Below, piece by piece: positions 1 to 62,445 of a stretch of 64,000 bases of DNA; the first letter of the stretch is position 1, and each line of letters opens with the position of its first letter. The notes beneath the pieces are model-generated. The model worked only from the letters and a program-made list of their open reading frames with translations, did no database searches and was not told the DNA's origin. Made by a program: the position numbers and the translations under genes. Location of the stretch: contig OZ037771.1 in NCBI GenBank assembly GCA_964035545.1, positions 11,660,480-11,724,479 of the forward strand, given 5' to 3'. This stretch comes from Bugula neritina. Its lineage: Eukaryota; Animalia; Bryozoa.

Positions 1-811
1 ATGCGTATACACTCCCTCCTCCCCTTCCATCCTCAGAGCGGAAAAGACACAGACAGCCGACTTCCTCTCGCTCGTCCCCCTGGGCCCGCAACCTACGTGA
101 AGTAGAAGCTAGGGCACACGACTTGGAGCAAGAAGTGTACAGACTGGCCCCACGGGTGCAGGCTGCATCCAGTGAACTCAAATATTTACAGGAGTCTATT
201 AAACGCATAAAGCGTGCGGCCCGCAGTTAACTAGAGTCTATCTCCAACTCCATACTACTCTTCCTCTACCTCTCTGTGGCATTCCCTACCGTTATGGTGG
301 CACGTACTCTACATGTAGATAGGACCTTCTCTTACTTATTACATATTGTGCACGTTATATATATACCTGTATATTTTATCAGTTGTTGTTTTTTTTGTAT
401 ATACTTTTATACTGTTCTCTTACCCCCCCCCCCCATAACGAAGTATACGTTTTTTTATGTGAATCTTATTTTTATCAGAAAGAGGGCTTTCTGCTGGAGG
501 GGCAGTGTGGTGGCTCGTGGAGCTACCAGCAACACAATACGCAAGGTTGCGTATTGACCCGGAACAATGTATTAGCCAATTAGCTAGGCTGTTTTATGAG
601 TAATAGTAGCAGCTTCGCGCTACTAGCTCAGTTGAGGATAGTGCTGTAAATTAAATAGACGTGTGTATCATTACTGTTGTACATTAGATTTTATTATGTA
701 TTCTTGTATTAAAATATAACGATATCTACTCGACTTAACTCGGTGAAGTTTCTCTAGTGATAAATAGACTCTCTTGGTGGCACATCAACCCTAAATCTGA
801 AAATCATAACA
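1..811 (+). mobile_element. 3' end of Ty3/Gypsy LTR retrotransposon (element 0): tail of accessory ORF, T-rich tract, hairpin/PPT, 3' LTR 506-811
   Basis: The PPT-like cagaaagagggctttctgctggaggggcag resembles those of elements A and B. It is followed by TGTGGTGGCTCG...ATCATAACA, which is homologous to the 5' LTR of element C (28007-29105). Confidence 0.88.
3..230 (+). CDS. C-terminal part (basic region and coiled coil) of the retrotransposon accessory zinc-finger ORF; the 5' part lies outside the window
   Basis: Manual translation gives ...ARNLREVEARAHDLEQEVYRLAPRVQAASSELKYLQESIKRIKRAARS*, which aligns with the element B C-terminus NLKEVEIRMYDLEAEVQRLTPRVAAAASELKTLK. It is absent from the ORF track because there is no start codon in the window. 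Confidence 0.8.
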   Translation, partial: AYTLPPPLPSSERKRHRQPTSSRSSPWARNLREVEARAHDLEQEVYRLAPRVQAASSELKYLQESIKRIKRAARS

Positions 812-11542: not shown

Positions 11543-12619
11543 ATATTCATAGTACTAAGTATATTACTGTTAGCAATAGTATTGTTAGTTGTACTACATT
11601 ATCATTAGACTTACACTTACTCTTGGCATAACAGTGGACGTAGTAACACTAATACTAATAGTAATACTAATGTAATAACTATAAGTATAGAAGTAATAAG
11701 TAATAAGTACTATAGTATTATAAATTATTATATAACCTGAAAGAAAATCCCCTTTCAAGTTTTGTAGTTTCACTTCTACTCTTGGAAGTACTGGTTGAAG
11801 TACTAGTGTCTAGTAATGAAATTACTTACCTCTAATTTGATTAAACTTAAAGAAGCTAAATGAATATCAATATTAATATATACTCTTAATAACTCAGTCT
11901 TAAGTCTATCGTAGTCTAAGTCACCTGTTATTTAGTAATTTACTCTCAGTCTTAGTCTTACAGTCTTATGATCTTAGTCCATAGAGTGAGGACTAAGCCT
12001 AAGGGCCCATTGGGCGTCGAGTGATTTAATTTTATCATTAAATGTAATGATTAAATTTAATCATTATGATATTGCTTTATATTAATCATTATGATTCAGA
12101 TTATGATTTTCATTATGATTATCATTGACATTATGATTATCATTATCATTATCATTATCATTATGTTGTAAATATCATTACACGCAGTCTGAGTCTTTGT
12201 TTCATGGGAAGTAGTAAAACTTTTGCAAGTATAAGAAACTTGCAGTGACATTAGTAGTAAAAACTATAAATATGACACGATATCTATAAGTATAACATTG
12301 AAACAATATAATGTAGTTTTGCTACGGTTGCGGTACCTAGTAATCTAGCGGAAAGTAATGGCAAGTTGACTTTGACTATGGGGAAACCCCTTCCTGATGA
12401 GTGTTGGGATGGATCTTGAACTGTTCGTTTCGGAGATAACACTTTACGAAACTTTGCCGATGCTAAAAACGCATCTAATTAGATGATGAACTGATCCGCA
12501 ATAATTGTCATTGTGACAAGCTGCTTAGCTTGAAGAGTAGACAACTCGTTGTTTTAATTGATACAAAATCCGTAACTAACTATTCACACTGAATTTGGTA
12601 TGTATATTATATATAGTAT
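11543..12619 (+). repeat. Duplicated non-coding block, copy 2, upstream of the TRIM gene; interrupted by element A and resuming at 17994-18160
   Basis: Homologous to 812-1832. Copy 1 shows the empty site (single GTAT in tatatagtatatacg). Confidence 0.88.
12381..12390. promoter_or_regulatory. Candidate NF-kB/Rel site GGGAAACCCC (also at 1414-1423)
   Basis: Matches GGGRNNYYCC and is identical in both copies of the duplicated block; about 1.9 kb upstream of the TRIM ATG. Confidence 0.4.
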
Positions 12620-12975
12620 TGTAGTGAGTCATGCAAAGTACAAATACGGGAATCGCCCTCTCTCTCTTCTGGGAATACTAAGACCCTTATGTAGCAACCA
12701 ATTAGCAGCACCGGAAGGTATGCTTCCGACTCACGTGACACTTCCCGCGGGGTATTAACAATTTATCACGTTGTTGTAAGCGGAGGCTTGAAGTGAAAGC
12801 ATGTGTTAGTAGTTGACTGATGTATAGGATAATTTGATGTGATGTTTACTTTATGCTTTATTGTGGATAATTAATATAATTTCTCGACAGCTACCCTAGT
12901 AATTGCTAGCAGAATAACCAACTAACTATACGCAAGTAGATAACTCACGCACAGTAATTGCACAAATTACTACAG

Positions 12976-12993
12976 TGGTGGCAGCGGTGGGAT
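12976..12993 (+). promoter_or_regulatory. Primer-binding site complementary to the tRNA-Leu 3' end (identical at 18710-18727 and 29107-29124)
   Basis: TGGTGGCAGCGGTGGGAT is the reverse complement of ATCCCACCGCTGCCACCA, the 3' end of metazoan tRNA-Leu(AAG/TAG). It starts 1 nt after each 5' LTR. Confidence 0.9.
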
Positions 12994-13009
12994 CTTGCGT
13001 ATAGCAGTC

Positions 13010-13960
13010 ATGGCAGAAGACGGCACAGAGCTACCCATTCCACTGAATGAAGGTGAGAGAGATAATGTTGATATACCTGTGGAACCAGTGGTGTTAGAAG
13101 AAGAAGTGAGAATTCCTAGAGAGCATGGTGAAGACAGATACCGGCTGAAGGCGCCCACCTTCACAGGCGAAGAAGCAGTGGAACAGTTTATCCAAGAATT
13201 CCAAGATGTGATGGAGATTGCACAGTGGCCGCCAAGGGTGGCGTTGCTCAAGCTCAGGATGGCGCTGACCGACAAGGCTAAGCCGTACGGAGCGGGACCT
13301 GACATAGACGGAATCTTTGCTTCTCTGCGGGCCCGCTTTGGCATCTCCCCCATAGATGCGCGGGCCCGCCTACAAAGGCTGCGGCGTGATCCTCACACGT
13401 CGCTACAAGAGCACGCTGCCACGGTGTACCCACTAGCGCAGATCGCGTTCAGCGATCTGCCTCCGGTACACCGTGAGAGGTATACTTATGATGCCTTCGT
13501 GCAGTCCATTAACGACTTGGGGCTCCACCATCAATTCCAAGCGAGGGGAGTCACCACGGTCGAAGATGCACTTGCGGTGGGAGAAGCCTACCTCATGGCG
13601 ACTCATACGCACCGCAACCGCGTGGCCTCCCGCCAGGTGGCCACGGAGCACACTACTGCTCATACCGAACCAAACGTGGAACCCTCCGCGGTGGCTAATG
13701 TGAACCAGATGTCACTAGCATCAAAAGTCGCACAGATGACTGACATGCTAGATAAACTGGTCGCCACATTAGCTCCCCCAAGCCAGGTAGATACCGCCCA
13801 TGAGCCTTGCGGGCCGCAGGTACAATCACCAGGCATGGGGCACAACTTCTGCTGGGGATGCGGAAGGCCAGGACATTTCCAGAGGAACTGCCCTCAACTC
13901 CAACAAGGGTTAAACTACCACGGCCCGCAGATGTTCCCACCTCCTGCGGGCCGTCTGTAA
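13010..13960 (+). CDS. gag: Gag of element A (capsid-like region and CCHC zinc knuckle), intact
   Basis: Open 316-codon frame; APTFTG..VEQFIQEF..AQWP capsid-type motif; knuckle CWGCGRPGHFQRNC. Confidence 0.9.
   Translation: MAEDGTELPIPLNEGERDNVDIPVEPVVLEEEVRIPREHGEDRYRLKAPTFTGEEAVEQFIQEFQDVMEIAQWPPRVALLKLRMALTDKAKPYGAGPDIDGIFASLRARFGISPIDARARLQRLRRDPHTSLQEHAATVYPLAQIAFSDLPPVHRERYTYDAFVQSINDLGLHHQFQARGVTTVEDALAVGEAYLMATHTHRNRVASRQVATEHTTAHTEPNVEPSAVANVNQMSLASKVAQMTDMLDKLVATLAPPSQVDTAHEPCGPQVQSPGMGHNFCWGCGRPGHFQRNCPQLQQGLNYHGPQMFPPPAGRL
13909..13953 (+). promoter_or_regulatory. Putative -1 programmed ribosomal frameshift signal (G_UUA_AAC plus 10-bp hairpin)
   Basis: GTTAAAC at 13909-13915 is in the gag frame, followed by a 5-nt spacer and the stem cggcccgcag/ctgcgggccg. 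The -1 frame is the protease ORF. Equivalent signals are at 27151 and 30031. Confidence 0.75.
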
Positions 13961-14922
13961 ATCACCCAGGGAGGCCCGCGCGTCTGCCGCCCCGCTGGGC
14001 GCCGCGCGGAGATGCTGTGAAGTGGCGACCCCCGCGGCAAGTAGGCTCAAGCCACTCGCCGCCTGGGTCCTCTACACCACTCCAACACCAACACGGATCC
14101 GGCAGACGGTTGACCTCAGAGCCTGCGAGGGAAACGGTACAGGCGCCGCAAGGCGTACCGCCCCAACCTCGGCAGCTGGTCAATAGTCGTCGCCAAACGT
14201 GGACCCCTCGACCCACAGCGAGGGAGGTGCAACCACGGCACACACAGCTGCAGCCACACGGAAGTAGCTACTTCCTGCCAGGAAAGCTAGCCGGCAAGCC
14301 TGCCAACTTCCTCCTGGACTCAGGCTGCACCACCAACCTCCTTAGTCGTCAGTTCTTTGACACCCTCAGCGCTAAGATCAAGGACGGGTTGGCACCGTAT
14401 GAGGGGGATCATGGCACCCTGGCAGACGGGTCGTGCATTCCCTTCTACGGCATTATTGAGCTGACTGGTTACGTCCGTAACCAGGCCATCCGAGAGACGT
14501 TTATCGTCGGGCAGCTCAACGAGGACGCTATCCTCGGGATGCCATTCTTACAACGACACGGATGTCGCATCGATTTCAGTAAATCTGCGATGATCATGGG
14601 CGACAGGGAGCTCGCTTGTGTCGATAAGTTTGGTCGTCCTCTAGCGGGAGCAGTGCAGGTAGTACGGAGCTGTACTATACCAGGCCACTCCCAGGCTACC
14701 GTCCGCTGCAAGATAGATGGTGGCCAAACCTCTAAGTTGGGAGTTGTCGAAAATACGCACTCGAGAGTCCAACTTGCCCATAGCTTTAGCCGGCTTACGG
14801 GGCAAGAAGAGATCTCAGTGCAGTGTGTCAACCCCTCCTCAGAGACAGTAGACCTACCACCCAGGTCCATGCTGGGCCGCTTCCATCCTGTTCAGGAGGA
14901 AGCCATTGGGCCGTCGTCGTGA
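13909..14922 (+). CDS. pro: Retropepsin aspartic protease region of element A (-1 frame relative to gag)
   Basis: Active-site motif FLLDSGCTTN and DAILGMPFL motif. Confidence 0.88.
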   Translation, partial: VKLPRPADVPTSCGPSVNHPGRPARLPPRWAPRGDAVKWRPPRQVGSSHSPPGSSTPLQHQHGSGRRLTSEPARETVQAPQGVPPQPRQLVNSRRQTWTPRPTAREVQPRHTQLQPHGSSYFLPGKLAGKPANFLLDSGCTTNLLSRQFFDTLSAKIKDGLAPYEGDHGTLADGSCIPFYGIIELTGYVRNQAIRETFIVGQLNEDAILGMPFLQRHGCRIDFSKSAMIMGDRELACVDKFGRPLAGAVQVVRSCTIPGHSQATVRCKIDGGQTSKLGVVENTHSRVQLAHSFSRLTGQEEISVQCVNPSSETVDLPPRSMLGRFHPVQEEAIGPSS

Positions 14923-16254
14923 GCTACGACGGAAGGTCCTCAGCAGAGCCCGTCTCAAGGGCGGAGGACCGTCCCAACCCACGCCTCCCATCCTCCAGGG
15001 ACGCGTGGCTATACAGGCAACGGAAAGCGCCAGGCTATGGCTAGGTTGCCACATGGGTACAGTGAGGCGTCCCGCCACACAGACCACGACGCCCGCCTAA
15101 ATAGAGCAGGCTGTCGTGAGGTACCACGGGCGGCGAAGACCGCCCCTGCTCAGCAACTCCAACAGAGGGCTGACACGCCCCCGGAGGCTGTCCAGAGCCT
15201 CCGCGCCAAACCTGTATGGGCTGGTAACGTTAGGGAGCTGCCGAAGCTCCAGGAAAGCCTTCCTGGGGTGGTAGCCGACGTGTACCGAGCGAAACAGGAA
15301 GGGCGACGAGCCAGTAGTAAACAACGGCGACAGGGATGCGCCGAGTTACGGCTGTACTGTCAACGTTGGAACTCTCTGCGGGTCGGGCCAGATAGTCTGC
15401 TGACCATGACCTTGGCCGCCAACAGCAGACAGCCAGCCAGGAAGAGGGTCGTCTGCCCAGCTGCCATCCGCCGGGAGTTGATACAAGACACCCACGAGAA
15501 GACTCAAGGAGGAGTCCAAGGGGTGGTCACCAAGCTACAACTCCGGTGGTACCGGCCCAACATGGAGCGGGATATCCGGCGCAGAGTGAGACGGTGCAAA
15601 GTCTGCCAGACCAACAAGCATAGCCGTCTCCCTGGTGAAGCGGGGCGGCAGACGCATTGTGCGAGAAGGTCTTGGCAAGCGGAGACTGTCGTCCTGGCCG
15701 GAAACACCTCCATGACACCTCAGGAAGACTTGGCGAGGCGAGAAAGGCCACTTCCGTCCTTGAAAGTGCGCCCACCGCCCCCAACGTCAAGCCTGCCATC
15801 ACCACCACTTCCGGAACCGGAAACGGGTCCGGAAGTGCAAAAACCCCCCGTGGGAGGGGCTCCGCAAGGAGATACCAACGTAGGAACAACCGTCACAAAC
15901 AGGCTGGAAAAACCACCCGTGAGACATAACAATCCACGGGTGAGCACACCGCCTCCCACAGTGACGACGCCTCCAGAACCACACACTAGGCAACTTCCAG
16001 CGTGTCTCAGAGACTGTGTACGTGACCGCGGTATAAGCGGCAGTAACGAAAGTCTAGAAAGGCCTCGCATGGGAAAACAGGCAAAGAGACGTGGGAGTTG
16101 TGAACACCACGGAAATCTCAACTTTTGCCTCGGCGGAATCTCACACGAGATTCATCCGCTGGAAGTGAAGAGCCCTAGTCACGTTTCACAACCACGCTGT
16201 CCGGTCTTTTCCTACGTTGATGCAGTCAAGAGTAGACGTGCCACTAAACAGTAA
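14923..16254 (+). pseudogene. Internally deleted pol remnant of element A (integrase zinc-binding region only), in frame with the protease after a single TGA
   Basis: Alignment to B shows junctions at about 15160 (RT and RNase H lost) and about 15720 (integrase core lost). It retains DTH...WYRPNMERDI..VRRCKVCQ. Confidence 0.8.
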
Positions 16255-16277
16255 TCATTTACCGCTCTCATTCCAAA

Positions 16278-17335
16278 ATGTCTTACTATTCTGGATCGAA
16301 GGGTGAGTGAATTATGTTTTTGGTACGATAACTAGACTGCATCAGTCAGCTTTAGCTACATTAGCTAGCGAGCTGGAGATTCGATAATGATAAACAGTGG
16401 TGGGAATACACGTCGACTTTGATTTTAAATAATCTGCCATAGCGAGTGTGTTCTCCATCAACTATTCATTAGCCTGAATCTCACGAGTGTAACTGAACAG
16501 AGTACCGGTCAGGCTGTACACGCCGACGGTACCTCAGTGTATAATCTTTAACACTGCTACTCTTTCAGATCACACTCGAGTGACCACCTTCCGGTCACGG
16601 GACCAGCCAACCTCTCTGCCTATGGAAGAGGAACCTGTAATGGAAAATGGCATACCCGTGGTGCTTCGTCGACGACACCGCTGGGTGTCACCCACGACGG
16701 AAAGGAGAATTGAGGAAGCCTGGGGACCCAGCGGACCCCACCGAACCTGCCAGGTCTGCTTCGAGGAGTGCCCGTCACACCGCTCCCTGTGTCTACATGT
16801 AGACGCCCATTTTCTACTCCACTTCTGCCCATGCGGGTTCCACGACGTATACCCGTATCCCGTGACAGTCCATAAGCTGAGCTGCTTCGCCGGAGAGAAC
16901 CATACTGTTGATGAGGATAGTTTCCCCCAATACCTGGATGCCATCAAGCCAGTCATCAGGAAGGCTATCACCCTGGCTGCACTAGCGTCAGGGTTCCAAG
17001 TACTGCTGTTATCCGCCCGCCATAAGTCCCCTATGGTTCAGGGCCTGTCTCCTACCCCCGTCAACCCTAGCAACACCCCCAAATTAGAAGGAATAACAAT
17101 ACCTCCTCTAACAGAGACTACTACAACCCCGCCAAGGCCTAGCCAGCTGGCTAATGTAGAAGAGCGGCTTGTAAGACTACAGGCCGAGTTCACACAACTT
17201 GCCCCTGACTTGCTGGATACGACGACAGGTCTATACCAGTTGAAGGACTCAGTGGGGCGACTGAAGAGGCGGCTACGTGCCCGACAGGCTCGACACAGAG
17301 CACGCTCGCTACAAGAGTCAGAGTCCACCCAATGA
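16278..17335 (+). CDS. Element A accessory gene: spliced tandem zinc-finger and coiled-coil protein (about 263 aa); exons 16278-16302 and 16569-17335
   Basis: aaaATG...AAGG|GTGAGT donor and tttaac..tctttcAG acceptor give an in-frame phase-1 join. Fingers: CQVC-x12-H-x3-H and CPC-x12-H-x3-C. Heptad-rich C-terminus. Confidence 0.8.
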
Positions 17336-18742
17336 GTATGCCTGGGGTAGGCACCTTTCGTAGAGCTGTATTTCGTCTGGAAAGTGACGAGTGCTCCGAC
17401 ATTGGCCCGCGTGCTGGTAAGCACCCTCTCTCTTTATAGCTGACTGGATGTGTGTGTTCGATCACCCTGTTTACTTCTGTATATAAATGTTGTCGTGCTC
17501 AACTATTTCTCTTCTTCCTTTTTGTGGGTTTACTTATGTATGTTTTCTTTTTTTGGATTATTGTATAGTTTTTCTTTATGTGTTTTTTTTGTATTGTGTT
17601 ATCAGAAAGTAGGGCTTTCTGCTGGGGGGGGGGCGGTGTAGTGAGTCATGCAAACTACAAATACGGGAATCGCCCTCTCTCTATTCTGGGAATACTAAGA
17701 CCCTTATGTAGCAACCAATTAGCAGCACCGGAAGGTATGCTTCCGACTCACGTGACACTTCCCGGGGTATTAACAATTTATCACGTTGTTGTAAGCGGAG
17801 GCTTGAAGTGAAAGCATGTGTTAGTAGTTGACTGATGTATAGGATGATTTGATGTGATGTTTACTTTATGCTTTATTGTGGATGATAAATATAATTACTC
17901 GACAGCTACCCTAGTAATTGCTAGCAGAATAACCAACTAACTATACGCAAGTAGATAACTCACGCGCAGTAATTGCACAAATTACTACAGTATATGCACT
18001 TTCACACTATGACTATATTTTTCTGACTGAAAAGCTAATACAATGTTCCTTTCACAAAACTTGAAGAAACAATTTGTGTGAAGGACAAAAAGGCAAAACT
18101 GTTCAGTGTTCAACAGCTTAGTGGAAGAAGGTCATTTCTTCTGAAATAATATCATGGCTATATCACAGTGTAATACAATCTACTGTAGTCCATATATTAC
18201 AGTATAATATTAAAATATATTACATAAGGTTATACTATATATTCGAGAATATTACAATGCATCTATTACAGCAGTATATTATTATTACAATGTATAGCAC
18301 TATCTCACAGTGTATTACAATATATTACAGTGTTTTACCGTGTAATATGATAATATAATATTGCAGTGTACTATAATTATAGATATTGCAATTTATATTG
18401 CAGTACTATCTCGCAATGTTTTACAGTGTATTGTAATGGGGCGTGGTTTACGCGTCACGCGTACCCCCCTGCCAATCACAGAGAGTGATTGGCAACTATT
18501 GTATTAAGCCAAGCAGAACAATTATTAGTTAATTAACGTGTACTTGCAGTGATGTAAAGTAGCAATCGTGGTGATACTTATAGAGATTTTTACATTATAT
18601 TATTACAGTTTATATTAAAGTTTACAAATGAAACTACCGGTGAATTGCTTGTGACTAAAGGCCAATAACTCACTAGAAGCCTACATAATCATTGTGCATC
18701 GCACAACAGTGGTGGCAGCGGTGGGATTATTCTAGCTGGGAC

Positions 18743-21700
18743 AATGAAAAGACGGAGAACATGACAGAACACACCACAAAACACCCGGGAGGTAAGCCAG
18801 CCAATTTCTTGCATATGGAGGAGGTGTATAGAGATAAACTGACCGCTCCCACCTTCACGGGTGTAGAAGATGTAGAGCAATTCATTGAGGAATTCCACGA
18901 TGTAGCAAACGTCGCTTAATGGCCGCCACAAGTAGCCCTCGTCAAGCTGCGGGAAGTATTGACGGAGCGCGCTAGACCGTTCGGACAAGGACGGAGCGTG
19001 GCGGAGATATTCACTACACTACGGAGCCGTTTTAGCACCTCCGCTCTAGAAGCCAGGGCCCGTCTACAAGTGCTACGCCAGGCGGAAGACACTCCGCTCC
19101 GCGACCACGTTGCCTTAGTGAAAAGACTGGCATGGAGCGCGTACAGCGACCTGCCAAAAGCACACCGACGGAACTTTACTCTCATTGACTTCATGCAGTC
19201 CCTAAAAGATGTTGGTCTCTGCCATCAACTACAGGCAAAGGGAGTGACCACTCTAGAAAATGCCCTACAAGTCGGGGAAGACTACCTCCGGGCCGAGCAG
19301 TTATATACAGGGAAAACAGAAGGCGCACAAGTCACCGAGGAGATAGCGCAATCACTCGGGGAGAAGATGGGCCGGCTGAGCGCCAGACTGAAGCAGATGG
19401 CAAAGACCCTTACCAATGCCGGCCCCCCTAACCGAGAACAAAAAGGAGAGACCTCGGAGAAGACTACCCGGAGTAGGAAAAATAACAAGCCAGGGCCTCC
19501 TCACTCCGGAGACCCTCAACCCAGAAAGAGGCCCCACGGGCAGAAGAGAGAGCAAACACGGGATGTACCCCGTGAATGGCAGATACCACGACGGACCATC
19601 CGCCCTATCGGGCGACAGGAACCGTTCGTGCTACCAATCACCAACCGCTTCAGCCAGCTACTGGAGACGGAGCTGGCCGGCGAGGTCCCTCGGGACATCG
19701 GAGGGGGATTAAACACCCCTCCGCCGAAGAAGCGGCGCCAGCAGACCACCAAACGGACACCACGCCGTTTGACCGAGGCTACGCATGCTGGGGAAGTAAG
19801 GTTGCAACGGCATGGAGAAAGCTACTTCCTGCCCGGGAAGGTAGCCGGCAAGGCCGTCACGTTCTTGCTAGACTCCGGTTGCAACACGAATCTCCTCAGC
19901 AGACGAGTCTTCGATGCCCTCCCTGCCCAGGTGAGGAAGGGGCTAGCTCCCTACACTGGGGAACCTGGCACCCTTGCAGACGGGTCGCGTATCCCCTTCT
20001 ACGGTGTTGTAGAGCTGCCTGCCCGCGTCCGCGACCAGGCCATCCAGAAAACCTTTATCCTCAGCCAGCTGGAAGAGGACGCTATCCTGGGGACGTCGTT
20101 CTTGAAGCGACACTAGTGCCACATGGACTTCCATAAGTCCGCCATACTAATGGCCGGCCGGGAGCTTTCCTGTGTCGACAAGTTCGGTCGCCCCCTGGTC
20201 GGGGGTGTGCAGGTGGTCCGTAACTGTACGGTACCCGGCCGCTCCCGGGCGACCATTCACTGCAGAGTGAATGACCGTCAACTCTCTGGACTAGGGGTCG
20301 TTGAAGGAACGCACAAGAGAATCCAACTCGCCAGCAGCTTGAACCGGCTGACTGACCGAGGGGAGATCTTGGTGCAGTGTGTCAACCCCTTTTCATAGTC
20401 GGTGACACTACCGTCTGGATCCCTATTGGGCCGTTTTCACGCGGTCCAAGAGGGAGACATAAGACCGTCGCTGGGCGAAGCGACGGAGGGTCCCCAAGAG
20501 CGCCCGTCTGTACGGTGGGGGACCGTCCCGGAACACGTCCAAGAACTATGCCAGTCAGCCTGTGAAGGCTGTGCGGGCAACAAGGAGCGCCAAGCTATGG
20601 CCCAGTTGCTGCGCCAGTATGGGGACGTGTTCAGCAGCGGAGACCAGGACGTGGGCCTGACTAGAGCCGTCCGTCATGAGATACCGCTAGCTGCCGGGAC
20701 TCTGCCTATCCGCCAACCCACCAGGAGACTGGAGCCAGAGAAAGAGAAGGAGGTCAGCCGACAAGTCTGGGATCTTTTGGACCGCGGCCTCATAGAGCCT
20801 GCACATAGTGCGTGGAGCTCGCCGGTCGTTCTGGTCTGGAAGAAAGACGGCAGTTGGCGGTTCTGTGTGGATTACCGCAAGCTTAATAGCGTAACCATAC
20901 AGGACGCCTACCCTCTACCTCGGATCGACGAATCTCTGGACGCCTTAACCGGCAGCAAGTACTTCAGTACTTTAGACTTGCTGAGTGGCTACTGGCAAGT
21001 CCCCCTCAGTCCCGACGCCCAGGAGAAAGCGGCGTTCATCACCAGAGACGAGTTGTGGAAGTGGAAGGTACTGCCCTTCAGGTTAACTTCTGCTCCCGCT
21101 ACCTTCCAGCGGCTCATGGAACAGTTTCTCAGCGGCCTCCACTGGAAGACATTGCTCGTCTACCTCGATGATGTCATCGTGATCTCCCCAGACTTCACGA
21201 CCCAAGTCAGTCGTTTGCGGGAGGTCTTCGAGCGACTCCGGTGTGCCGATCTCAAGCTCAAACCTTCCAAATGCGCTCTTTTGCAGCCGGAGGTGAAGTA
21301 CCTGGGGCACGTAGTCGGCCGTAATGGCGTGGCGACGGACCCCGATAAGGTGCGGGCTGTGACCGACTGGGTCACCCCCCAGGAGTTGACCGGACTCCGG
21401 GCTTTCCTGGGGCTGGTAGGGTATTACAGACAATACATACCAGACTTTGCGGGGGTTGCACAGCCGTTAAATCGGCTCACCGCAAAGGGAGTGACCTGGC
21501 AGTGGACGTCCGTCGAACAAAGGGCATTTGACAGTCTCAAGAGCCGCTTGCTAGAGGCTCCAATTCTGGCCTACCCAGACCCCGCTCTGGCGTACGTTCT
21601 TGACACTGACGCCAGTGACCAGAACGTTGGCGCTGTGCTGTCGCAAGTGCAGGAAGGCCGTGAAGTAGTTGTAGCTTACTACAGCAAATCACTCCCACCC

Positions 21701-24073
21701 CCGGAGCGCAATTACTGCACCACTTGCAAGGAGTTACTGGCAGTAATCAAGTCAGTGAAACACTTCCGGCCTTATCTCTACGGTAGGCCGTTCCGCTTGT
21801 GAACGGACCACGCCTCTTTGATCTGGCTGTGTAAGAGAGCTGAACCGTCCAGTCAAGTCGCCGATGGATCGAAGTCCTAGCTGAATTTTCATACCGGATC
21901 GAACATCGACCCGGTAGGAAACACGGCAATGCGGACGGACTGAGTCGGCGGTCGGACGAGGGGTGCAAACAGTGTCACAACATCGAGAGAAGGGATGGGG
22001 GTCCCCCAAGATCCGAGTTGGCGACACTGGACCACCCTGGAGTGAGCTACGACTGGGACCAAGGTCAACTCAAGCCAAGGAGTCCTAACCCACCGGAGGC
22101 TGTCAATAACCTCCGCGCCAACCCTGTCTTGGCTCGTAATGTCAGAGAGCTGCAGAAACTCCAGGAGGACCTCCCTGGGGTGGTAGCCGACATATATCGA
22201 GCTAAACGGGAAGGGCGACGACCCAGCGAAAAACAGCTGCGGCAGGGGTGCGCCGAGTTACGGCTATACTGCCAATGCTGGGACTCTCTGCGGATCGAGC
22301 CAGATGGTCTGCTGACCATCACCTTGGCCGCCGATCAGGGACACCCTGGTCAAGAAAGGGTGATCTGCCCAACCGCCATGCGCCGGGAGCTAGTATGGGA
22401 CACTCACCGACAGGCTCACGCCGGAGTTCGGAGGGTGCTTACCAAGCTAAGGCTCCGGTGGTATTGGCCCAATATGGAGCGTGACGTCCGCCTAAGGATC
22501 AAACAATGCGAAATCTGCCAGGCCAGCAAGCCTGGCCGTCTTCCCAGGGAGGCGGGACGACGTAGGCTATATGCTGGTAGGCCCTGGGAGGTGGTAGCTG
22601 TTGACTTGGTCGGACCCATGCCCATCACCCCCAGAGGAAACAACTGGATTCTAGTGCTGACCGACCACTTCACTAGGTGGGCCGACGCACTGGCCATTCC
22701 AGATGCGTTTGCCCCGACAGTGGCCAGCACACTAGATCAGAGTGTATTCTGCTACTTTGGGTTGCCCGAGCAACTACACTTGGACCTGGGGTCGCAATTC
22801 CAGTGTTAACTGATAAGCGACCTCTGTCGCCTCTGGGGAGTAAACCAAAGTAGGACCACTCCATACCACCCTCAGGGTAACGGAGTGGTCGAATGCAACA
22901 ACCGGATGCTGGGCGATGCACTCCGCAGTCTACTGCTCGGCCGAGGCCAGGAGGAGTGGAATCTCGTGTTGCCGCAGGTCATGCGGGCCTACCGCAGCAC
23001 GCCACATACCAGCACTGGCGAGACCCCCAACCTCTTGACACTCGGTCGTGAGACACGAGTGCCCGACCACCTCGCCTATCATATTCCAGAGCCAGAATAC
23101 TCTGTCCACGAGTACGCTGGGGACTTGATAGAGCGTCTGAAAGTCGCACACGAAATACTGCAGGATAAGCAGTGGCAGGTGCGACAGGAAGACGCTGATG
23201 AGCCACCCCTCTACAAGACCGGAGACTGGGTCTGGATGATCAACTACCGTAGGCGTCGAGGACAGGCGGCTAAACTACAGCCTAAGTTTGTAGGACTCTA
23301 CGCGGTAGTTGAGGTGATGCCCAATCACACTTACAAGTTGGAGCGGTCTGGACAAATATCTGTCCAGAATGAAGCCCGCTTGAAACCCTATTGGGCTAGC
23401 CCAGGTGCGGCCGGGGGTGCCCCCCATTGTTAGAGCCGAGGAGGCAGAGAACAATGCGCGGGCGGCGGCGGCATAAACCCAATGATGAGTGGGTCATGTC
23501 ACGGACAGAAGACTTGGCAAGGCAAGAGGGCCACACCCTCTGCTTCCAGAGCCAAGCCGTCCGGCCCCAGGGCTACCACCACCACTTCCGGAACTAAATA
23601 TACTTCCGGAAGGGCAAAACCCCCACACGGGAGGGGCTCCGACCGGAGAGAACAGAGGGGAAGAGAGAATGACAGCCGACGGGAGGCAGGAAACACCACC
23701 AGTGGAGAATAACAACCCACTGGTGAGTACACCACCTCCCTCACCAGCTACCCCACCTTCCCCGGCGTCTTCCACTAGTACATCTCCCCCCCTTGAAAGG
23801 GGACAACGTACTAGAAGACCCCCAGCTTATGTTCAAGACTTCGTATGCGACCGCATTACAAGCGGCAGGTATGAAAGTCCAGCTGGGCGCCGTACGAAAA
23901 GACTGGCAGCAAAGCTTGGGAGTTATGAACACCACGGAAAAACCAAGTTTTGCGAAAACGGAATAGCGAATGGAATTACCACTCTCCGGGCACATAGTTC
24001 CGGTCTCGCCCAACAAACACGCTGCCCAGCCTTTTCCTAAGCCGACGCGGTCAAGAGTAGACGTGCTTTTTAA
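18743..24073 (+). pseudogene. pol: gag-pol of element B (gag, protease, RT and RNase H in one frame; then integrase), with several nonsense and frameshift lesions
   Basis: Motifs: LLDSGC (PR); DYRKLN, LDLLSGYWQ, YLDD (RT); TDASD, ELLAV (RH); H..H..CxxC, AVDLVG and a GPY/F-like PKFVGLY (IN). In-frame stops at 18917, 20114, 20396, 21800, 22807 and 24038; frameshifts at about 21865 and 23420. Confidence 0.93.
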
Positions 24074-24103
24074 TCCATCCACATCCAAGCTTGAACGTCG
24101 AGT

Positions 24104-25250
24104 ATGAGTATAAATACCGAGTTCCCAGGTAAGCTTGCTTAGATCTAACACTCCACTAATGGAAATAGATCTCACCTCAGTCAACTCTGATTTAATCGAT
24201 CTGATTGAATCACAGTTACTGGAGACAGAGTCACACGTGAATGACGACGAGGACATAGTAATGGCGGACGATCTACTAGATCTGGAGCTTGATACTATGT
24301 CTCTCAGTCAGTTTACACGTTCTGACACAGTCTCTCGAGTGCCGTATAAAAAGATGTATGACTCTCAGACTAGTAACAGTCGATTGTCATCAGAATTATG
24401 CTGTAAAGATCAAATTCGATCTAACAATAATTCTGCTCTTTTAGACGCCACTCGCTCTTCCAACTACGGAGACATGCCACCACTAGAGCTAGCCTGGAAC
24501 GGCGAGACACCTCCCACATCTCTACCTGACGTGCTACTCCAACAGCATAGCTGGGTCGCACCAGAAACAGAAGAGCAGATTCAGCTACACCGCGGCCATG
24601 ATGAATGCACCACCTGCAGGCTGTGTCAGCAGCACTTCTCTACCCATCGCCGTTTGCGCGTCCATGTACCGCAACACTTCTTAACTACCCTCTGTCCCTG
24701 TGGTGAATTTAGTTACCACAGGGACTACATCCTCAGACACCAGCGCACCATGGAATGCCATGTGGGGCACCTATATGATGTGGATCAATATAACTTCCCC
24801 ACCTTCCTCAACCTGATCAAGCCTTTCATTAAAGACCTCCCCCGTTTTGAACGACTGAAACAAGGATTCCCCTCCCCTCGCATCATCACTCATGGACCGT
24901 GTCCGAAACCCCCCAGACACAGGAAACCTACAAAGCCACCCCACTCTCCCCAAGCACAAACTGTACCTCGACCCACCACCCTACCTCGAGTCCTGCTCCA
25001 AAGAGTCGAGATACCTCGGAAACGACGCTCCCCCTCTCCCGTTTCTATACAACCTTCTTCTAAACGCCGCTGGCATTCCTCCTCAAAACGGCAGGCTCCC
25101 AACGCTTGCAACTTAAAAGAAGTTGAAATCCGCATGTACGACTTGGAAGCTGAGGTTCAACGGTTAACCCCCAGAGTTGCTGCAGCCGCCTCAGAGCTGA
25201 AGACTCTCAAAGCCTTTGTGGCCCTACTCAAACGAGGCGACCAAGACTGA
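24104..25250 (+). CDS. Element B accessory gene: spliced tandem zinc-finger and coiled-coil protein (about 276 aa); exons 24104-24128 and 24445-25250
   Basis: agtATG...CCAG|GTAAGC donor and ctaac..ctcttttAG acceptor give an in-frame phase-1 join. Fingers: CRLC-x12-H-x3-H and CPC-x12-H-x5-C. The ORF is intact. Confidence 0.8.
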
Positions 25251-25958
25251 TGATGACAGTATCCTCCCTCCCTACTTCTCTAACTATCCGCACCTGCAGG
25301 TGGTGACAATCTCTCTCTCTCTCCGTTCATTCCTCCTCTGGCCGTATCTGATCTCGGTGCTACATGATCTCCGTATGTGGATTGTATTATTCTTTTTGTT
25401 ATATTTTTTATGTCAATACGTAATTTTGCTCAATAGTGTGTAAATTCCCTTGGGGAATATGTCCACCTTACGTGATGTTCAGATCTTATTTTTTTTTTGG
25501 GTTTTTTTTATAATATTTTGTTTTATATTTTTTGTTGTTGTGGGTGAATATCAGGAAGGTGTGCTTCCTGCTGGGGGGGGGGCGGTGTAATGGGGCGTGG
25601 TTTACGCGTCACGCGTACCCCCCTGCCAATCACAGAGAGTGATTGGCAACTATTGTATTAAGCCAAGCAGAACAATTATTAGTTAATTAACGTGTACTTG
25701 CAGCAATGTAAAGTAGCAATCGTGGTGATACTTATAGAGATTTTTACATTATATTATTACAGTTTATAATAAAGTTTACAAACGAAACTACCGGTGAGTT
25801 GCTTGTGACTAAAGGCCAATAACTCACTAAAAGCCCACATAATCATTGTGCATCGCACAACAGTATTACAGTGTATTACAGTGTATATTGCAATACAATA
25901 AAATTTGCATTAAAGTGTTGGACATTGTTTTGTAGAGATTTTATATTATCTATGTTAT

Positions 25959-26578
25959 GTGGCATTTAAAAAGGTAAATGAAGGGATTTATATTCAAAGT
26001 CGACATGGGGCTGATCTCTTTGATGTGGCTCAGTTCAAATTTAAGGCCCATACTACCAAACACCTAGTCAGAGAGATGTTGTTTGCTGATGACAGCACTT
26101 TGGTGGCACATTGCGCTGCAGATATGCAAGTGCTAGTGAACAACTTTGCAAAAGCAGCGGCTCAGTTTAGCTTAAAATTCAACATTAAAAAGACAGAATG
26201 CATGTACCAGCCAATCAAATTTATTCAGCCTTCACCTGAACCTGAAGTTGTCATGATAGATCAAGAACCAGTTGTACTTGCCTCAGACTTTACTTATCTA
26301 GGAAGCACTGTTTCCTGTACGGCAAAAATAGATAAAGAGCTACGGAGCAGACTAGGCAAAGCAAGTGCGGCTTACGGAAAGCTGCAGCAGGGACTCTGGA
26401 ACAACAGACATGTATCTATAAGGGTAAAGTGTAAAGTTCAGAGCGGTGGTGCTTTTAAGCCTGCTGTATGGAGCAGAAACTTGGACAATATACAGGACAC
26501 AGATAAAGAAACTAAGCGCTTTCATGATGAGGCAACTAAGAGACATAATGGCTGTAAAATGGTATGACAAAATTACGA
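25959..26578 (+). mobile_element. RTE-clade non-LTR retrotransposon (LINE) reverse transcriptase fragment, frameshifted
   Basis: Motifs MLFADD, KFNIKKTECM, FTYLGS and LLYGAETWT are typical of the RTE RT C-terminal region. Confidence 0.85.
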
Positions 26579-26579
26579 G

Positions 26580-28006
26580 CTTACAGCTCGGGATGTTATT
26601 GTGCAGCTCCAAGGGCTTAGGAGAGATCCTAAGACTACCTTGAGGGAGCACGCTACCGTAGTTGAGCGGCTAGCACAAGTCGCCTATGGTGACTTGCCTG
26701 CGAATGGTCGGCAGAGTCTGGCATTAGATGCTTTTTTTCAGTCTATTAACAACCTAGGGCTGAAGCAACACCTGCTGGTAGCTGAAGTTGAGACCATGGA
26801 TCAAGCTCTCAGGTTTGGGAATGCTTATTTCCAAGCCCACAGTACGTGCCGGCTTGGGGCGACAGCACAAGAAGTCGAGGCCGACGACAACTTGTCGACA
26901 TTGACGCTGTCGGCCAAGACGGCTGTACATGTCACCACGGCGGCAGCCAACGAGCCGACTAGCCGACTAGCTTGACCACAAGCTTGGTTCGAGAGCTGTT
27001 AGCTAAGATCAAGCAACTACACCAACAGCCGACAGCCGAGCGATCTACCAGGTTGCCGACAGCTGTCGTCGGCAGGCGGGGCTCCATATGCTAGGGTTGT
27101 GGTAATGGTGAGCACCTTATACAAAGCTGCCCCCATGGTAGAGGGAGGCAATTAAACGAAAACGGTCCATGGTAGACTCCGCCGACCGTGGGCCTCGGTT
27201 TAATTTTCCGAGGCCAAGGCCCAAACCCAATCGAGTGAGGAGGCCGCCTTCGCCAGAGTGGCAAGCCCCAAGGAGAGTTAGTAAGCCACAAGGCCTGCCA
27301 AAACCTCCGGCTTTGGCACTCAAAAACCGCTTTGAAGGTTTGCCTGATGAGGGGATGTACGACAAGTGGGAGCGAGACAGTGACTTCCATCGGTTGCCCA
27401 CAGGAGCACAAGACCGAGCATTCACTCGGCCGACCGTGTGTGAGCAAGACCGAGATGTAACCCGCTTGCCCACTAGACGTCGACGACCCCCTCCCAACTG
27501 AAATGCGCAGCTGCATTCCCAACTCCATGCACATGAGATGTTACCTCCAAAGACGAACTGCTCAGTGAGCGCCCAGCCATATGGAAGCAGCTATTTCTTC
27601 CCCGGTAAACTTGTCGGAAAAGCAGTCACTTTCCTATTGAATACTGGGTGCACCACTAATCTTCTGAACTGGCGTCTGTTTGACACACTCAGTGCTAGGG
27701 ACCGGGCGAACCTGGGGCCATTTGAGGGAGAACACAGCACATTGGCTGACGGGTTGTGTATTCCTTTTTATGGCGTGATAGAGTTGACTGGTAGAGTCCG
27801 TGATCAGGCGATCAGCAAGACCTTCATCGTCAGTCAACTCAAGGAGGACGCCATCTTAGGCATGCCATTTCTGAAGCGACACAGGTGCCACACTGACTTT
27901 AACAAGTTTGCGGTAGTGATGGCCGGGCGTGAGCTGGCTTGTGTGGACCGATTTGGCAGACCCTTGGTGGGGGAAGTGCAGATAGTACAGCGCTGTACTG
28001 TACCTG
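26580..28006 (+). mobile_element. Fragment D: truncated Gypsy gag-pro of the same lineage (no LTRs)
   Basis: Gag LQGLRRDPKTTLREHA..., degenerate knuckle C*GCGNGEHLIQSC, slip site ATTAAAC with hairpin, and protease FLLNTGC (D to N). It ends at the start of the element C LTR. Confidence 0.85.
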
Positions 28007-28121
28007 TGTGGTGGCTCGTGGAGCTACCAGCAACGTAGTAACGGGGAATTATTATTTCCCCCACAAGTGCGGCACGGGGTTACGTAGATGACCCGGAACA
28101 ATGGACAGCCAATTAGCTATA

Positions 28122-28876: not shown

Positions 28877-29138
28877 TACTGACAGTTATTAGTAGTAGTA
28901 GTAGTTTCCTGCTGTTTATTGAGTTGAGAATAGAGTGTTGAATTGTATGGACGTAGAAATTAACTGAATGTATTTGTATAGTTTTTGTGATGTATTCTTG
29001 TGTGTAAAATATATTAGTATTAACTCGACTTATCCTGGTGAAGTTCTCTAGCAAATAAATAGACTTTCTTGATTGCACATCAACCCAAATCTGAAAATTA
29101 TAACAGTGGTGGCAGCGGTGGGATAGTGCACATCCAAG

Positions 29139-32100
29139 ATGGAGACTGAAGACGCTGGAACGCAACCACAGCCAGTAGAAGGTGAGCGTAGAGATGATCT
29201 GATTCCTGTGAATCATGTGGTAGAAGAGCGAAGAGTTCCTCGAGAGCTGAACGAGGACCGCTACCGGTTGAAGGCGCCCACATTCACGGGCGAAGAAGAA
29301 GTGAAGCAATTCATCCAAGAGTTTAGCGACGTAATGGACGTCACCCAGTGGCCACCTAGGATGGCCCTGCTGAAGCTCAGAATGTCATTGATGGACAAGA
29401 CCAAGCCTACGGGTTAGGACCAGACATCGATAGTATCTTTGCTTTTCTGCGGGCCCGCTTCGGCATCTCTGCTATAGATGCCTGGGCCCGTCTGCAAAAG
29501 CTGCAGCGTGATCTCCACACCCCGCTACAAGAACATGCCACCACGGTCATGAAGCTGGCGTAGATTGCGTATAGCGAGCTACCTCAAGCTAACCGTGAAA
29601 AGTATACTTTTGGCGCCTTTGTACAGTCTGTCAACAACTTGGAACTACACCACCAATTTCTAGTTAGGGGAGTTACCACAGTCGGAGGTGCTCTGGCAGA
29701 AGGGGAAGCTTATCTCCTGGCAAACCAGATGCATAGAAATCGCGGGAACTTCCACCAGGTGGAGATAGAGCCCACGGACACGGCGGCTGATCAGGAGGAG
29801 GAGCCCTCCGCGACCGCTGCCGTGGAACAGTTAACTGCCGCATCGAAGGTCGCCCAACTAACCGACATGTTGGCTAAACTGATAGCAACACTGATACCTC
29901 AAACCCAAGTGGGCACTGCTTACGAGCCTCCGCGGCCGCCGGCGCCGCCACCGGGGGAAACAGTCAGTTTTTGCTGGGAATGTGGAAAAAAAGGACATTT
30001 CCGCAGATAATGCCCTCTCCTGGCTTTGGGGTTAAACTACCGCGGCCCATAGATGTTCCCGTCTCATGCGGGCCGGCGATGAATCCTCCAGAGAAGAGGA
30101 AACATAGGTCACCCAGACGGGTACCGCGTGCGGACAACCAGGAGTGGCGACAGCCACGGCAGACAGGTAAGGGGCTCCGCCCCGCTGTTACCTTCTCTAT
30201 GCCACTCCACAACCGATTCGACGGGCTCCCAGCCCAAGAATCCGGAAAGGAACCAACACGGGCAACTGGAAACTTAACATCCCCACCTCCGAGGACACAC
30301 TACCACCGTCCCAAACCATCTCCCTCGCGACCTAAAGCGAGAGAGGTGCTCCCTGCGAGAGTAAGGCACAAAGAGAGAGTACAGGTACAGCCCCATGGGA
30401 ACAGCTATTTCTTGCCCAGTAAAATAGAGGGCAAAGCTGTTACTTGCCTACTTGATTCGGGCTGTACCACGAACCTCATGAGTCGCCAACTCTTTGATAC
30501 CCTCAGCACTAGGGTCAGGGGCAAGATGGAACCGTACGAGAAGGAGTATGGCACCCTGGCTGACGGGTCGTGCATTCCCTTCTATGGTATAATTGAGCTG
30601 ACGGGACGCGTCCGAGATCAAACAATCCAAGAGACGTTTATCGTCAGTCAGCTCAAGGAGGACGCCATCCCCGGAATGCCATTCCTGAAACGGCACGGAT
30701 GTCACATCGACTTCAGCAAGTCTGCAATGGTGACGTCCGGGCGAGAACTGGCTTGTGTCGACAAGTTCGGCCGCCCCTTAGTGGGAGGCGTCCAGGTGGT
30801 ACGAAACTGTACCATACCAGGCCGCTCCCGGATTACTATTCACTGCAGAGTGAATGATAACCGGATCTCTGGACTCGGGGTAGTTGACGGCGCGCACGAA
30901 AGAATCCAACTTGCCAGCAGTTTAAACCAACTGACTGAGCGAGGAGAGATCTTAGTGCAGTGTGTAAACCCCTTTACTGAGTCTATCAAGCTACCAGCTG
31001 GGTCTATGCTGGGCCGGTTCCACTCTGTCCAAGAGGAGGACGTGGGCCCGTCGCTGGGAGATGCGACAGAAGAACCCCCTCGATGCCTCAAACTGGGGCG
31101 GGGGACTGTTCCAAAACACATCAGGGAGTTATATGAGACAGCTTGTGGTGGCTGTGCGAGCAACGAGGAACGCCAGGCTATGGCGAAGTTGCTACGCGAC
31201 TATGGTGATGTGTTCAGTAGCCGAGATCACGACGTGGGACTGACTGGAGCTGTCAGACACGAGATACCGCTGACTGCAGGGACAGTCCCTATTCGGCAAC
31301 TCACACGCAGTTTGGGGCCGAAGAAGGAGAAGGAGGTCAGCCGACAAGTCCAGGCTCTTCTGGACCGCGGCCTCATCGAGCCAGCCCACAGTGCGTGGAG
31401 CTCGCCGGTCATATTGGTTCAGAGGAAAGACGGCAGTTGGCGGTTCGAGAAGGTACGGGCGATAGAGGACTGGGTCACCCCCAAGGCTTGACCGGACTCC
31501 GGGCTTTCTTGGGTCTGTTAGGGTATTACAGACAATACATACCAGACTTTGTGGGGATAGCGCAGCCGTTAAAGCGGCTCACCGCAAAGGGAGTGACGTG
31601 GCAGTGGACCCCGGTCGAACAAAGAGCGTTCGACCGCCTCGAGGGTTGCCTACTGACGGCACCCATCTTGGCATACCCAGACCCTACTCTGGAGTACATT
31701 CTCGACACAGACGCCAGTGACCAGAATGTTGGCGCTGTGCTGTTTCAAGTGCAGGAAGGCCGAGAAGTAGTAGTAGCTTACTACAGCAAGTCTCTCTCAC
31801 CCACTGAACGAAATTACTGCACTACCCGCAAGGAGTTGCTGGCAGTAATCAAGTCAGTGAAGCACTTCAGACCATACCTGTCGGCAGGAAGTTCCAGCTG
31901 CGTACGGTTCATGCCTCCCTGATCTGGTTGTGCAAGAGAGCAGAACCGTCCAGTCAGGTTGCCCGGTGGCTTGAAATCCTAGCTGAGTTCTCCTACCGGA
32001 TCGAACACTGACCGGGCAGGAGACACAGCAATGCGGACGGTTTGAGCCGCCGACCTGATGGAGGTTGCAAACAGTGTCTCAACATCGAGAAGAGGGACGG

Positions 32101-34137: not shown

Positions 34138-34875
34138 ATGTCATACGATAGCGGATCGTGGGGTGAGTTAACTATGTCTTGATATGGAAACTAGATTGCA
34201 TCACTCAGCTCTAACTCGTCTGAGTCAATTGAGCTGGAGATAGGTTAGTGAACTACAGTGGTAGGAACTCAGATTGACTTAGAGATTTCACATTCTCACT
34301 GCAGTATGTGTTCTGTTCCAACTACTCACTACCATAAATCTCAACGAGTGCTAACTGAACGAGAAGTTGTCAGGCTGTCCAAGGCCGACAACACTACAGT
34401 GTATTGTACTAACGCTGTTGAAACTCTTTCAGGTTACACTCGACCCGCTACAACCAGGGTACGGGATAGAGCACCTCTCGCTCCACACCACGAGGAGTAT
34501 ACCAATGGCAAACGACCTGGACCACTGCGCCGCCGCTGGCGGTGGGTGTCGCCGGAGACGGAGACAAAGATAGAAGCGGCCTGGGGACCCAAAGGAAGGA
34601 CACAGTGCCAGATTTGCTATGATGAGAGCCCGTCTCACCACTCCCTGAGGCTACACGTCAATGCCCATTTCTTACTAACATTCTGTCCATGCGGACACAA
34701 CGACGTCTACCCCTACTCGGTCACCAGGCATCGAGCGGCTGGATGCTTCCCGGGGGAGAACTATGTAGTAGATGCTGATCTCTATCCGGAATTTCTGGCT
34801 CTAATACGGCCCTTAGTGAAGAAGGCGATGTTACTGGCCGTTCTAACCTCCAGTTTCCAGAATGTGCTAGACTAG
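34138..34875 (+). CDS. Element C accessory zinc-finger gene (spliced, C-terminally truncated); exons 34138-34162 and 34433-34875
   Basis: agtATG...TGGG|GTGAGT donor, TACTAAC branch site at 34407-34413, ctctttcAG acceptor, in frame. Fingers: CQIC-x12-H-x3-H and CPC-x12-H-x4-C. Homology ends at about 34872. Confidence 0.75.
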
Positions 34876-62309: not shown

Positions 62310-62445
62310 ATGACACCAAAACAAAAAAGTATAGGTTTCATTCCAAAACTTAAAACCAGACCAAACCTAAAACTCTATAGAGTCTTAGGTTTGGTCTGGT
62401 TTTAAGTTCTGGAATGAAACCTATACTTTCTTGTTTTGGTGTCAT
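62310..62445. repeat. Spacerless 136-bp palindrome (68-bp arms, 3 mismatches)
   Basis: atgacaccaaaac...actcta|tagagt...gttttggtgtcat, centred at 62377/62378. Confidence 0.95.

Follow-up and report, generated by a model that had tools for sequence, protein, structure and literature searches.

Gypsy elements of a bryozoan carry a conserved, intron-split gene for an uncatalogued two-zinc-finger protein at the env position

What does a gypsy element encode at the position of env when the reading frame found there is not an envelope gene? The question is raised by positions 24445..25250 of the window (the whole stretch of 64,000 nucleotides analysed here), where the initial annotation had described a tandem zinc-finger and coiled-coil protein. 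Our analysis shows that the gypsy elements carry at this position a conserved gene, split by an intron, whose product is a two-zinc-finger protein that has not been catalogued; we call it ORF3. The window consists of animal DNA that is rich in AT apart from a GC-rich block at 13-35 kb. This block contains Ty3/gypsy elements, every one on the + strand, and the gypsy pieces in 0-35 kb share one orientation. The landmarks are as follows.

3..230, + strand: element 0, the last 75 aa of a B-type ORF3, with basic linker and helix but no fingers
12620..17989, + strand: element A, with LTRs at 12620-12974 and 17637-17989 that are 97.5% identical
18432..18708, + strand: element B 5' LTR (TG...CA)
18710..18727, + strand: element B primer-binding site, an identical 18 nt in A, B and C
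18761..24082, + strand: element B gag-pol (PR, RT, RNase H, IN, SH3), with several stops and frameshifts
25586..25862, + strand: element B 3' LTR, 97.5% identical to the 5' LTR, with a G-rich polypurine tract just before it

Element B spans 18432-25862, and both of its LTRs are flanked on the outside by a 4-bp target duplication, GTAT, which is common to elements A and B. The 18-nt primer-binding site presumably matches tRNA-Leu. Element A carries gag, PR and an intact ORF3; it had been described as lacking RT and IN, and RT, RNase H and the integrase core are indeed gone while the integrase zinc-binding domain is still present. Element C has a 5' LTR that ends near 29105, is cut off near 34875 and misses part of RT, and element 0 is a 3' end only, at 1-811. 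Judged by domain order and RT similarity, these are Ty3/gypsy elements: they have TG..CA LTR ends, target duplications, a primer-binding site and a polypurine tract, their domains run PR-RT-RNase H-IN, and the RT is nearest to that of Ty3 (E 1e-79 to 1e-80), retroviral RTs reaching E 1e-34 or weaker. A and C have similar ORF3s, yet their LTRs give no blastn alignment. The LTR of element 0 (508-811) is C-like (74% against 28886-29105) and its ORF3 is B-type instead, which points to recombination between families. In the sequencing run X1, summed depths on element A are ~10,000-20,000 against ~50-125 for single intergenic contigs, depth not being copy number; such coverage of an element that has lost RT, RNase H and the IN core points to a non-autonomous gag-PR-ORF3 family that was amplified. 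At the gag/pol overlap of A (13900-13960, -1 frame), a slippery-like GGGTTTAAAC has a structured window behind it (z -3.7). Element B has gag and PR in a single frame, its gag is without a CCHC knuckle, and it sits within a 10-bp TATTACAGTG-type satellite (18150-18431, 25863-25900, 2100-4700). Between B and C lie a LINE-like RT fragment and then a further gypsy gag-PR fragment (25914-28038).

We thus turn to the protein itself, whose parts are best defined in element B.

24445..25250, + strand: B ORF3 exon 2, the main feature
16569..17335, + strand: A ORF3 exon 2
34433..34875, + strand: C ORF3 exon 2, truncated past the core and ahead of linker and helix
24552..24860, + strand: B folded core (W-helix, both fingers, VD strand, helices)
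24615-24677, + strand: B C2H2 finger
24693-24758, + strand: B C2HC finger
25017..25028, + strand: B RKRR basic cluster (predicted, NLS-like)
25110..25238, + strand: B 43-residue heptad helix (predicted coiled coil)

Four motifs are found in A, B and C, just as had been read from the letters: W-V-[SA]-P-x-T-E-x-x-I, C-x2-C-x12-H-x3-H, C-x-C-x12-H-x3-5-C and V-D...I-[KR]-P. Each pattern has three occurrences in the six frames of the window, with none in 60 block shuffles for the tandem-finger, W and VD patterns and a mean of 0.08 (max 2) for the C2H2 pattern alone. Since the patterns were derived from A, B and C themselves, homologs from unrelated sources are the stronger test. The RKRR reported for B was located, and the linker and coiled coil reported for A, B and element 0 hold insofar as all three end in a long heptad helix, element 0 comprising just the C-terminal 75 aa. 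AlphaFold2 gives the 117-aa core as a single confident domain (pLDDT 91.5, pTM 0.80); the 267-aa model shows a disordered linker followed by a confident C-terminal helix, whose 43 residues in B reach pLDDT ~97.

The gene is Env-like in being a third ORF after pol on a predicted spliced subgenomic RNA, as are the Envs of errantiviruses, Tor and Boudicca/Saci-3, which are expressed by LTR-transcript splicing or an internal promoter (PMC4402516, PMC2582038). Unlike those Envs, ORF3 has no transmembrane segment by hydropathy (19-residue maxima of 1.08 in B, 1.55 in A and 1.64 in C) and is zinc-binding, basic and predicted to be nuclear; it also has no Env Pfam match. The envelope reading was dropped on these grounds, in keeping with the initial annotation. 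A reading as a chance ORF was rejected as well. A classical C2H2 finger (C-x2-C-x12-H-x3-H) is present, and finger 1 is like those of Kaiso, SALL3/4 and the ZBTB family, with model residues ~21-72 aligning at ~2.5-3.5 A. ORF3 nonetheless differs from classical tandem C2H2 proteins: the linker has five residues and is not of the TGEKP type, canonical fingers are not repeated, the second finger begins C-x-C, and flanking helices and a strand make the whole one domain. Its best structural neighbours are mostly DNA-binding tandem C2H2 proteins, and they are weak (Z 3.6 or less, Foldseek E 1 or more). Foldseek of the core against PDB and BFVD gave 0 matches at E 0.001 or better, and a wide structure search (VIA) none at Z 5 or more. 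The nearest ESM Atlas clusters are unnamed (0.95-0.96) or generic C2H2, with structure TM 0.47 or less. Weak Pfam matches to zf-AD, zf-C2HE and coiled coils fell below cut-off. Apart from generic zinc fingers, the module thus has no Pfam family or solved fold, and the earlier statement that ORF3 is not a described Gypsy accessory protein stands as regards characterised families in Pfam, PDB and BFVD. Across the family, recognition helices are near-identical, with a residue at +6 of finger 1 that is hydrophobic in most cases; the A-type finger 2 carries prolines where its helix starts. The module is net basic in 72/81 members and the part downstream in 48/55, while the heptad score exceeds all 20 shuffles in 36/55, by a test that is lenient for proline-rich tails. 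This build would fit a nuclear nucleic-acid-binding protein, as first proposed; the four functions put forward with that proposal had been left unranked.

How is such a gene expressed? Its predicted exons and introns are listed here.

13010..13052, + strand: A gag-leader exon, phase-1 donor
18761..18791, + strand: B gag-leader exon, ATG and 10 codons, phase-1 donor AG|GTAAGC; predicted first exon of an env-style spliced mRNA
29139..29181, + strand: C gag-leader exon, phase-1 donor
16278..16302, + strand: A mini-exon
24104..24128, + strand: B post-pol mini-exon, ATG, 25 nt, phase-1 donor; A and C alike in length and phase
34138..34162, + strand: C mini-exon
16303..16568, + strand: A intron, 266 nt, 7 in-frame stops; some DNA copies lack exactly this stretch
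24129..24444, + strand: B intron (GT..AG, branch-point-like CTAAC), without stops in the ORF3 frame, fold z -4.8
34163..34432, + strand: C intron, TACTAAC branch point, 74% identical to the A intron, no codon periodicity

Two GT donors are present in each of A, B and C: the first lies 31-43 nt past the gag ATG, the second ends the 25-nt post-pol ATG exon. All six predicted donors are in phase 1 and, when joined to the acceptor, stay in frame with no stops. The feature first given as 24445..25250 is real, with 24445 being a splice acceptor: exons lie ahead of it, and in B the frame also stays open on the 5' side back to ATG 24159. Two independent lines indicate that the gene is spliced. First of all, run X1, which covers intergenic DNA evenly and is on that account probably a DNA run, contains a joint that skips 266 nt, bounded by GT..AG, where the A intron is predicted (80% and 92% likeness); it is one contig, with 28 letters on its short side, and the sequence between was not seen. 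Such an intron-less A-type DNA copy suggests that spliced RNA was reverse-transcribed. Second, the database protein P0129 has an A-like gag leader (score 63, next best 28) directly joined to exon 2 and is, by its sequence, a gag-leader splice product. Among the X1 joints listed, neither the B intron nor the gag-leader splice is represented by an intron-less joint, and introns are kept in most DNA copies.

A product made from spliced mRNA while genomic RNA retains its introns invites comparison with Rev and CERV: the spliced protein would bind the structured intron region of the unspliced genomic RNA, restrain its splicing and export it. Genomic RNA has to keep canonical introns, as most copies do, and CERV too is expressed through a gag-leader splice (PMC10309623). 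The module is basic, and the introns of A and C are 74% identical without codon periodicity, whereas third positions of ORF3 agree at 49% (the three codon positions of the A and C cores give 0.75/0.79/0.49 in a DNA-only alignment). The intron regions of B and A fold strongly (z -4.8 and -5.6), with the donor within a stem. On the other hand, the C intron is weak (z -1.5), and structure is present all along the elements (median z per window -1.2 to -1.6, 45/212 windows at -2.5 or below), so that the intron is not the top peak. The co-fold, of two sequences only, gives compensatory pairs in 5/61. Moreover, export leaves an acidic patch of the family (below) unexplained, relatives fused to Pol have no evident need for it, and no likeness to CERV in sequence or fold was noticed. 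We consider RNA export fairly unlikely as the function of ORF3. Rfam gave no match in the intron regions and one chance-level match outside the ORF3 gene. The strongest RNA folds in the elements lie at 15056-15215 (the A deletion junction) and 23670-23910 (the B pol tail), with z -7.6 and -7.8.

The dN/dS check that had been proposed for ORF3 gave 0.25 for A against C over 143 codons, not near 1, with pN/pS of 0.47 (bootstrap 0.37-0.60). In the B-C, A-B and B-0 pairs silent sites are saturated, and pN/pS is 0.39-0.63. On these pairwise estimates, from which PR A-B (8 codons aligned) and RH B-C (18) were dropped, ORF3 is under purifying selection. The intact B ORF had also been offered as evidence of selection, and here the argument does not carry: with 8-10 lesions per 5.3 kb, the chance of no lesion in 806 nt is 0.22-0.30, which is not significant and makes the intact frame weak evidence alone. 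ORF3 evolves faster than integrase (0.09-0.11 for B-C), as might a counter-silencing decoy, in which the module would offer a surface for binding a host silencing factor and so block or sequester it. The finger surfaces, conserved and non-canonical on a compact globular domain, and the conservation of short forms lacking the acidic patch would suit a decoy as well. Its rate is, however, like that of gag (0.20, A-C) and protease (0.21, A-C), and the pairwise estimates give no sign of positive selection on ORF3; a decoy is in our judgement distinctly improbable.

The wider family supplies the test by unrelated homologs. A single-protein search with ORF3 gave 81 matches among 602 candidates and a profile search 277 among 7997, the 120 listed all being unnamed; 1.84 billion cluster representatives (50%-identity) yielded 381 matches at E 0.001 or better, 171 of them at 1e-10 or better. 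One of the 150 matches listed, P0318, is a generic poly-zinc-finger false positive and was set aside. Among 82 cores (dereplicated at 60% identity, with a few rows added on purpose), conservation is 98-100% for the seven shared zinc ligands, 89% for W, 91% for T, 94% for V and 90% for D. Finger 2 closes with C in 41 of them and with H in 27, and in 14 its last ligand was not found, so that the zinc ligands, initially called invariant, are nearly so in seven positions and variable in the eighth. Pfam on 52 distant members found no family for the module and generic C2H2 in two.

Relatives were also sought through Pol, in the best 120 listed polyproteins ranked by likeness to the B RT. The module lies in frame 257-697 aa past integrase in 24 of them; 18 have long tails but no module, 48 stop past IN, and in 30 IN is not complete. 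All 24 fall within an 89-leaf RT clade (FastTree 0.95) that includes B, fused and unfused forms being interleaved in the tree, where some unfused proteins are maybe truncated and others stop at the IN tail. Named pseudoscorpion, fish, frog, amphioxus and crayfish rows lack the module in 16/16 cases. In one further protein, P0394, protease is joined to the module without RT or IN. By these sequence comparisons the module is clade-wide. Its profile gave 31 and 55 pattern matches in metagenome and viral contigs, none confirmed. An integrase scan found none in viral contigs and 79 loci in all, 78 of them distant, with a module-like ORF in 1/79 (L002, weak, E 0.003): at 4542-4967, a C2H2 and C-x-C-x12-H ORF lies past pol behind an AT-rich acceptor-like stretch, the IN being 35% identical. 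L002 stands outside the 89-leaf clade, and the family may thus extend beyond it. Past integrase, L003, L005 and L008 have uncharacterised third ORFs of 411-447 aa that lack the module and match nothing in Pfam.

The Pol fusions suggest an integration tether, in which the module would be a chromatin or DNA reader at the Pol end that steers insertion, like the chromodomain at the integrase C-terminus of chromoviruses (PMC2774666) or the MBD that arthropod Copia carries as an extra reader-like domain (PMC6673714). The module follows integrase and SH3 in frame in 24/42 of the listed polyproteins having at least 300 aa beyond IN, and in three more proteins the IN tail motif runs on into it. Conserved recognition helices, the target duplication common to A and B and the clustering of the elements are also in keeping with a tether. 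ORF3 is unlike the chromodomain and the MBD, however, in having another fold, a position far from IN, an acidic patch and helix of its own, and often a separate spliced gene. No chromo Pfam match was found in window ORFs or five polyproteins. In A, B and C the module is a separate gene, not an in-frame integrase C-terminus; it is kept in elements without integrase, is 257 aa or more from IN even when fused, changes between fused and unfused among close relatives, and likely retains its own start Met in fused forms. A tether is for us unlikely.

Clusters bearing an organism name were 4/30 of those looked up, and all are bryozoan (Watersipora, Bugula). Annotated bryozoan genes with the module are XP_067944745, XP_067940963/4 and KAF6040922/23, and one Watersipora and one Bugula protein have a common N-terminal region besides it. 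These genes might be taken to mean that ORF3 is a recently captured host gene fragment, a passenger without a role for the element. Against this stand a dN/dS far under 1, a position fixed across the 89-leaf clade and a quick, poorly resolved module tree in which the bryozoan genes are scattered over three places between modules borne by elements, a pattern more in line with repeated domestication than with host capture; a passenger is extremely improbable. The window copies form a 20-row clade (97) in this quick tree, adjoining a Watersipora gene (86). P0260/P0405 (XP_067940964/3) and P0402/P0407 (KAF6040922/23) have doubled modules, or are in tandem with consecutive locus tags, and are candidates for domesticated copies.

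We now come to the reading that we prefer, for which the 5' extension of B matters.

24159..25250, + strand: B long ORF3 form that retains the intron, 363 aa from ATG 24159; 25 relatives start there
24189..24305, + strand: B acidic, leucine-rich patch (predicted, activation-domain-like)

In-frame intron stops number 7 in A, 4 in C and 0 in B, and since its intron has no stops, B also encodes a 363-aa form from ATG 24159. A start at the matching place is found in 25/139 proteins examined. An acidic patch rich in aromatic residues and leucine lies upstream of the module in 24/32 non-redundant members with at least 120 aa upstream, against a mean of 7.9 (max 12) in composition shuffles, 2/40 in downstream regions, 12/111 in the Pol core and 5/18 in long Pol tails without the module. 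The rule (a 39-aa tile with net charge -8 or lower and at least 6 W/F/L) was post hoc, fixed once, on related rows; we take it to be loosely modelled on activation-domain predictors. Of the Pol-fused linkers, 13/24 have the patch (shuffled mean 2.6, max 6), and in 10 of these 13 a Met lies within 30 aa before it (5.0 expected), an indication that the gene has kept a start of its own also where it is fused in frame to pol. The B extension, with 78% aa identity against 70% for the core and a strong RNA fold, may be conserved for RNA reasons instead of coding. The layout of acidic patch, finger module, basic linker and heptad helix is clade-wide. An acidic patch combined with basic fingers, a basic linker and a heptad helix is the layout of a transcription factor.

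ORF3 would on these grounds be a self-encoded transcriptional activator, by analogy with foamy-virus Tas, a reading to which we tentatively give a little less than an even chance. The protein, expressed by splicing, would likely enter the nucleus, pair via its C-terminal helix and bind element DNA or chromatin, raising the element's own transcription. A second promoter may lie ahead of the mini-exon, as a conserved second ATG exon past pol is what is expected of an internal promoter from the foamy IP and Oikopleura Tor (PMC7828637; PMC4402516). In B, the long form, made when the intron is kept, would carry the patch, and the short, patch-less form would dampen it; A and C, with the short form only, would have a repressor, competitor or adaptor. 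Besides the patch in 24/32 members, the activator reading has in its favour the basic module and tail, the heptad helix, the weak neighbours among DNA-binding tandem C2H2 proteins and the retention of the gene in elements without integrase (A; P0394). Several findings speak against it. First, the spliced products of A, B and C are without the patch, and the intron is closed by stops in A and C. Second, the ORF3 type does not track the LTR type (A and C; element 0 and C, with LTRs 74% identical). Third, near-constant helices, the hydrophobic +6, the A-type prolines and the absence of a TGEKP linker would fit a fixed ligand better than varied LTR sites. Finally, in-frame fusion to Pol, in 24/120 listed, is unusual for a transactivator. 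To all readings besides the five named here we assign a very small probability.

Among known systems, foamy virus Tas (Bel-1) is an accessory gene near the 3' end with an internal promoter and a transcription role (PMC7828637). Tas and ORF3 are alike in being encoded by the element near its 3' end, likeness of function being proposed only. Tas is a gene of enveloped Retroviridae, placed between env and LTR; ORF3 takes the place of env in Ty3/gypsy and has tandem zinc fingers. Tas is not among the matches listed for ORF3 in BFVD, PDB and Pfam. C. elegans Cer1 CERV is a gypsy-class nuclear accessory protein from a spliced mRNA that shares gag-frame exons; the paper on it gives 517 aa, H/M/G domains, a C4 loop, a Cys-rich region, a basic NLS and a predicted leucine zipper, and reports no homologs outside nematodes (PMC10309623). 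ORF3 resembles CERV in gag-leader splicing, Cys-rich and basic NLS-like regions and a leucine zipper or heptad helix, and differs in its C2H2 and C2H[CH] fingers, its place after pol and its ability to be in frame with Pol. The Drosophila MDG1 group, env-less gypsy elements, has conserved accessory sORF1 and sORF2 of 70-110 aa, mostly upstream of gag and unspliced, a helix-turn-helix and a transmembrane fusogen, with sORF1 nuclear (PMC11952523). Unlike ORF3, these sORFs are without zinc fingers. Gypsy regulators in the literature found are thus CERV (export, PMC10309623) and MDG1 sORF1 (nuclear, PMC11952523). A zinc-finger third ORF in gypsy elements was not described in that literature, the search for which lay outside subscription journals, Repbase, GyDB and Dfam. 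What is new here is the splicing, the intron-open 363-aa form of B and the clade-wide module, including its Pol fusions and bryozoan genes.

Self-encoded regulators (Tat, Rev, Tas) mark complex retroviruses. One could by extension see in this marine-invertebrate gypsy clade 'complex' retrotransposons, with a transcription factor of a new domain of their own, an activator-repressor switch made by keeping or splicing the intron, a gene that passes between Pol-fused and separately spliced states, and repeated donation to bryozoan hosts as nuclear genes; as a whole we find this picture somewhat unlikely. More importantly, ORF3 is a conserved, foldable, clade-wide gene at the env position and outside catalogued families, and its natural variants (with or without acidic patch, fused or free, with or without integrase) separate the hypotheses. 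How an invertebrate retrotransposon controls its own expression thereby becomes testable, and the family offers an origin for several uncharacterised bryozoan genes as well as a new Pfam domain.

The remainder of the window holds host sequences and repeats. Two host ORFs on the - strand, 38201-38893 and 39243-39962, have ShK-like domains (Pfam PF01549). An NHL/beta-propeller ORF at 5777-6520 (-) and an exon at 59590-60042 (+), Cys/His-rich and in our assumption B-box-like, could belong to TRIM-NHL host genes. Tandem arrays of 29 bp and 36 bp lie at 46474-47109 and 63614-63901, and a 68-bp perfect-spacing inverted repeat at 62310-62445.
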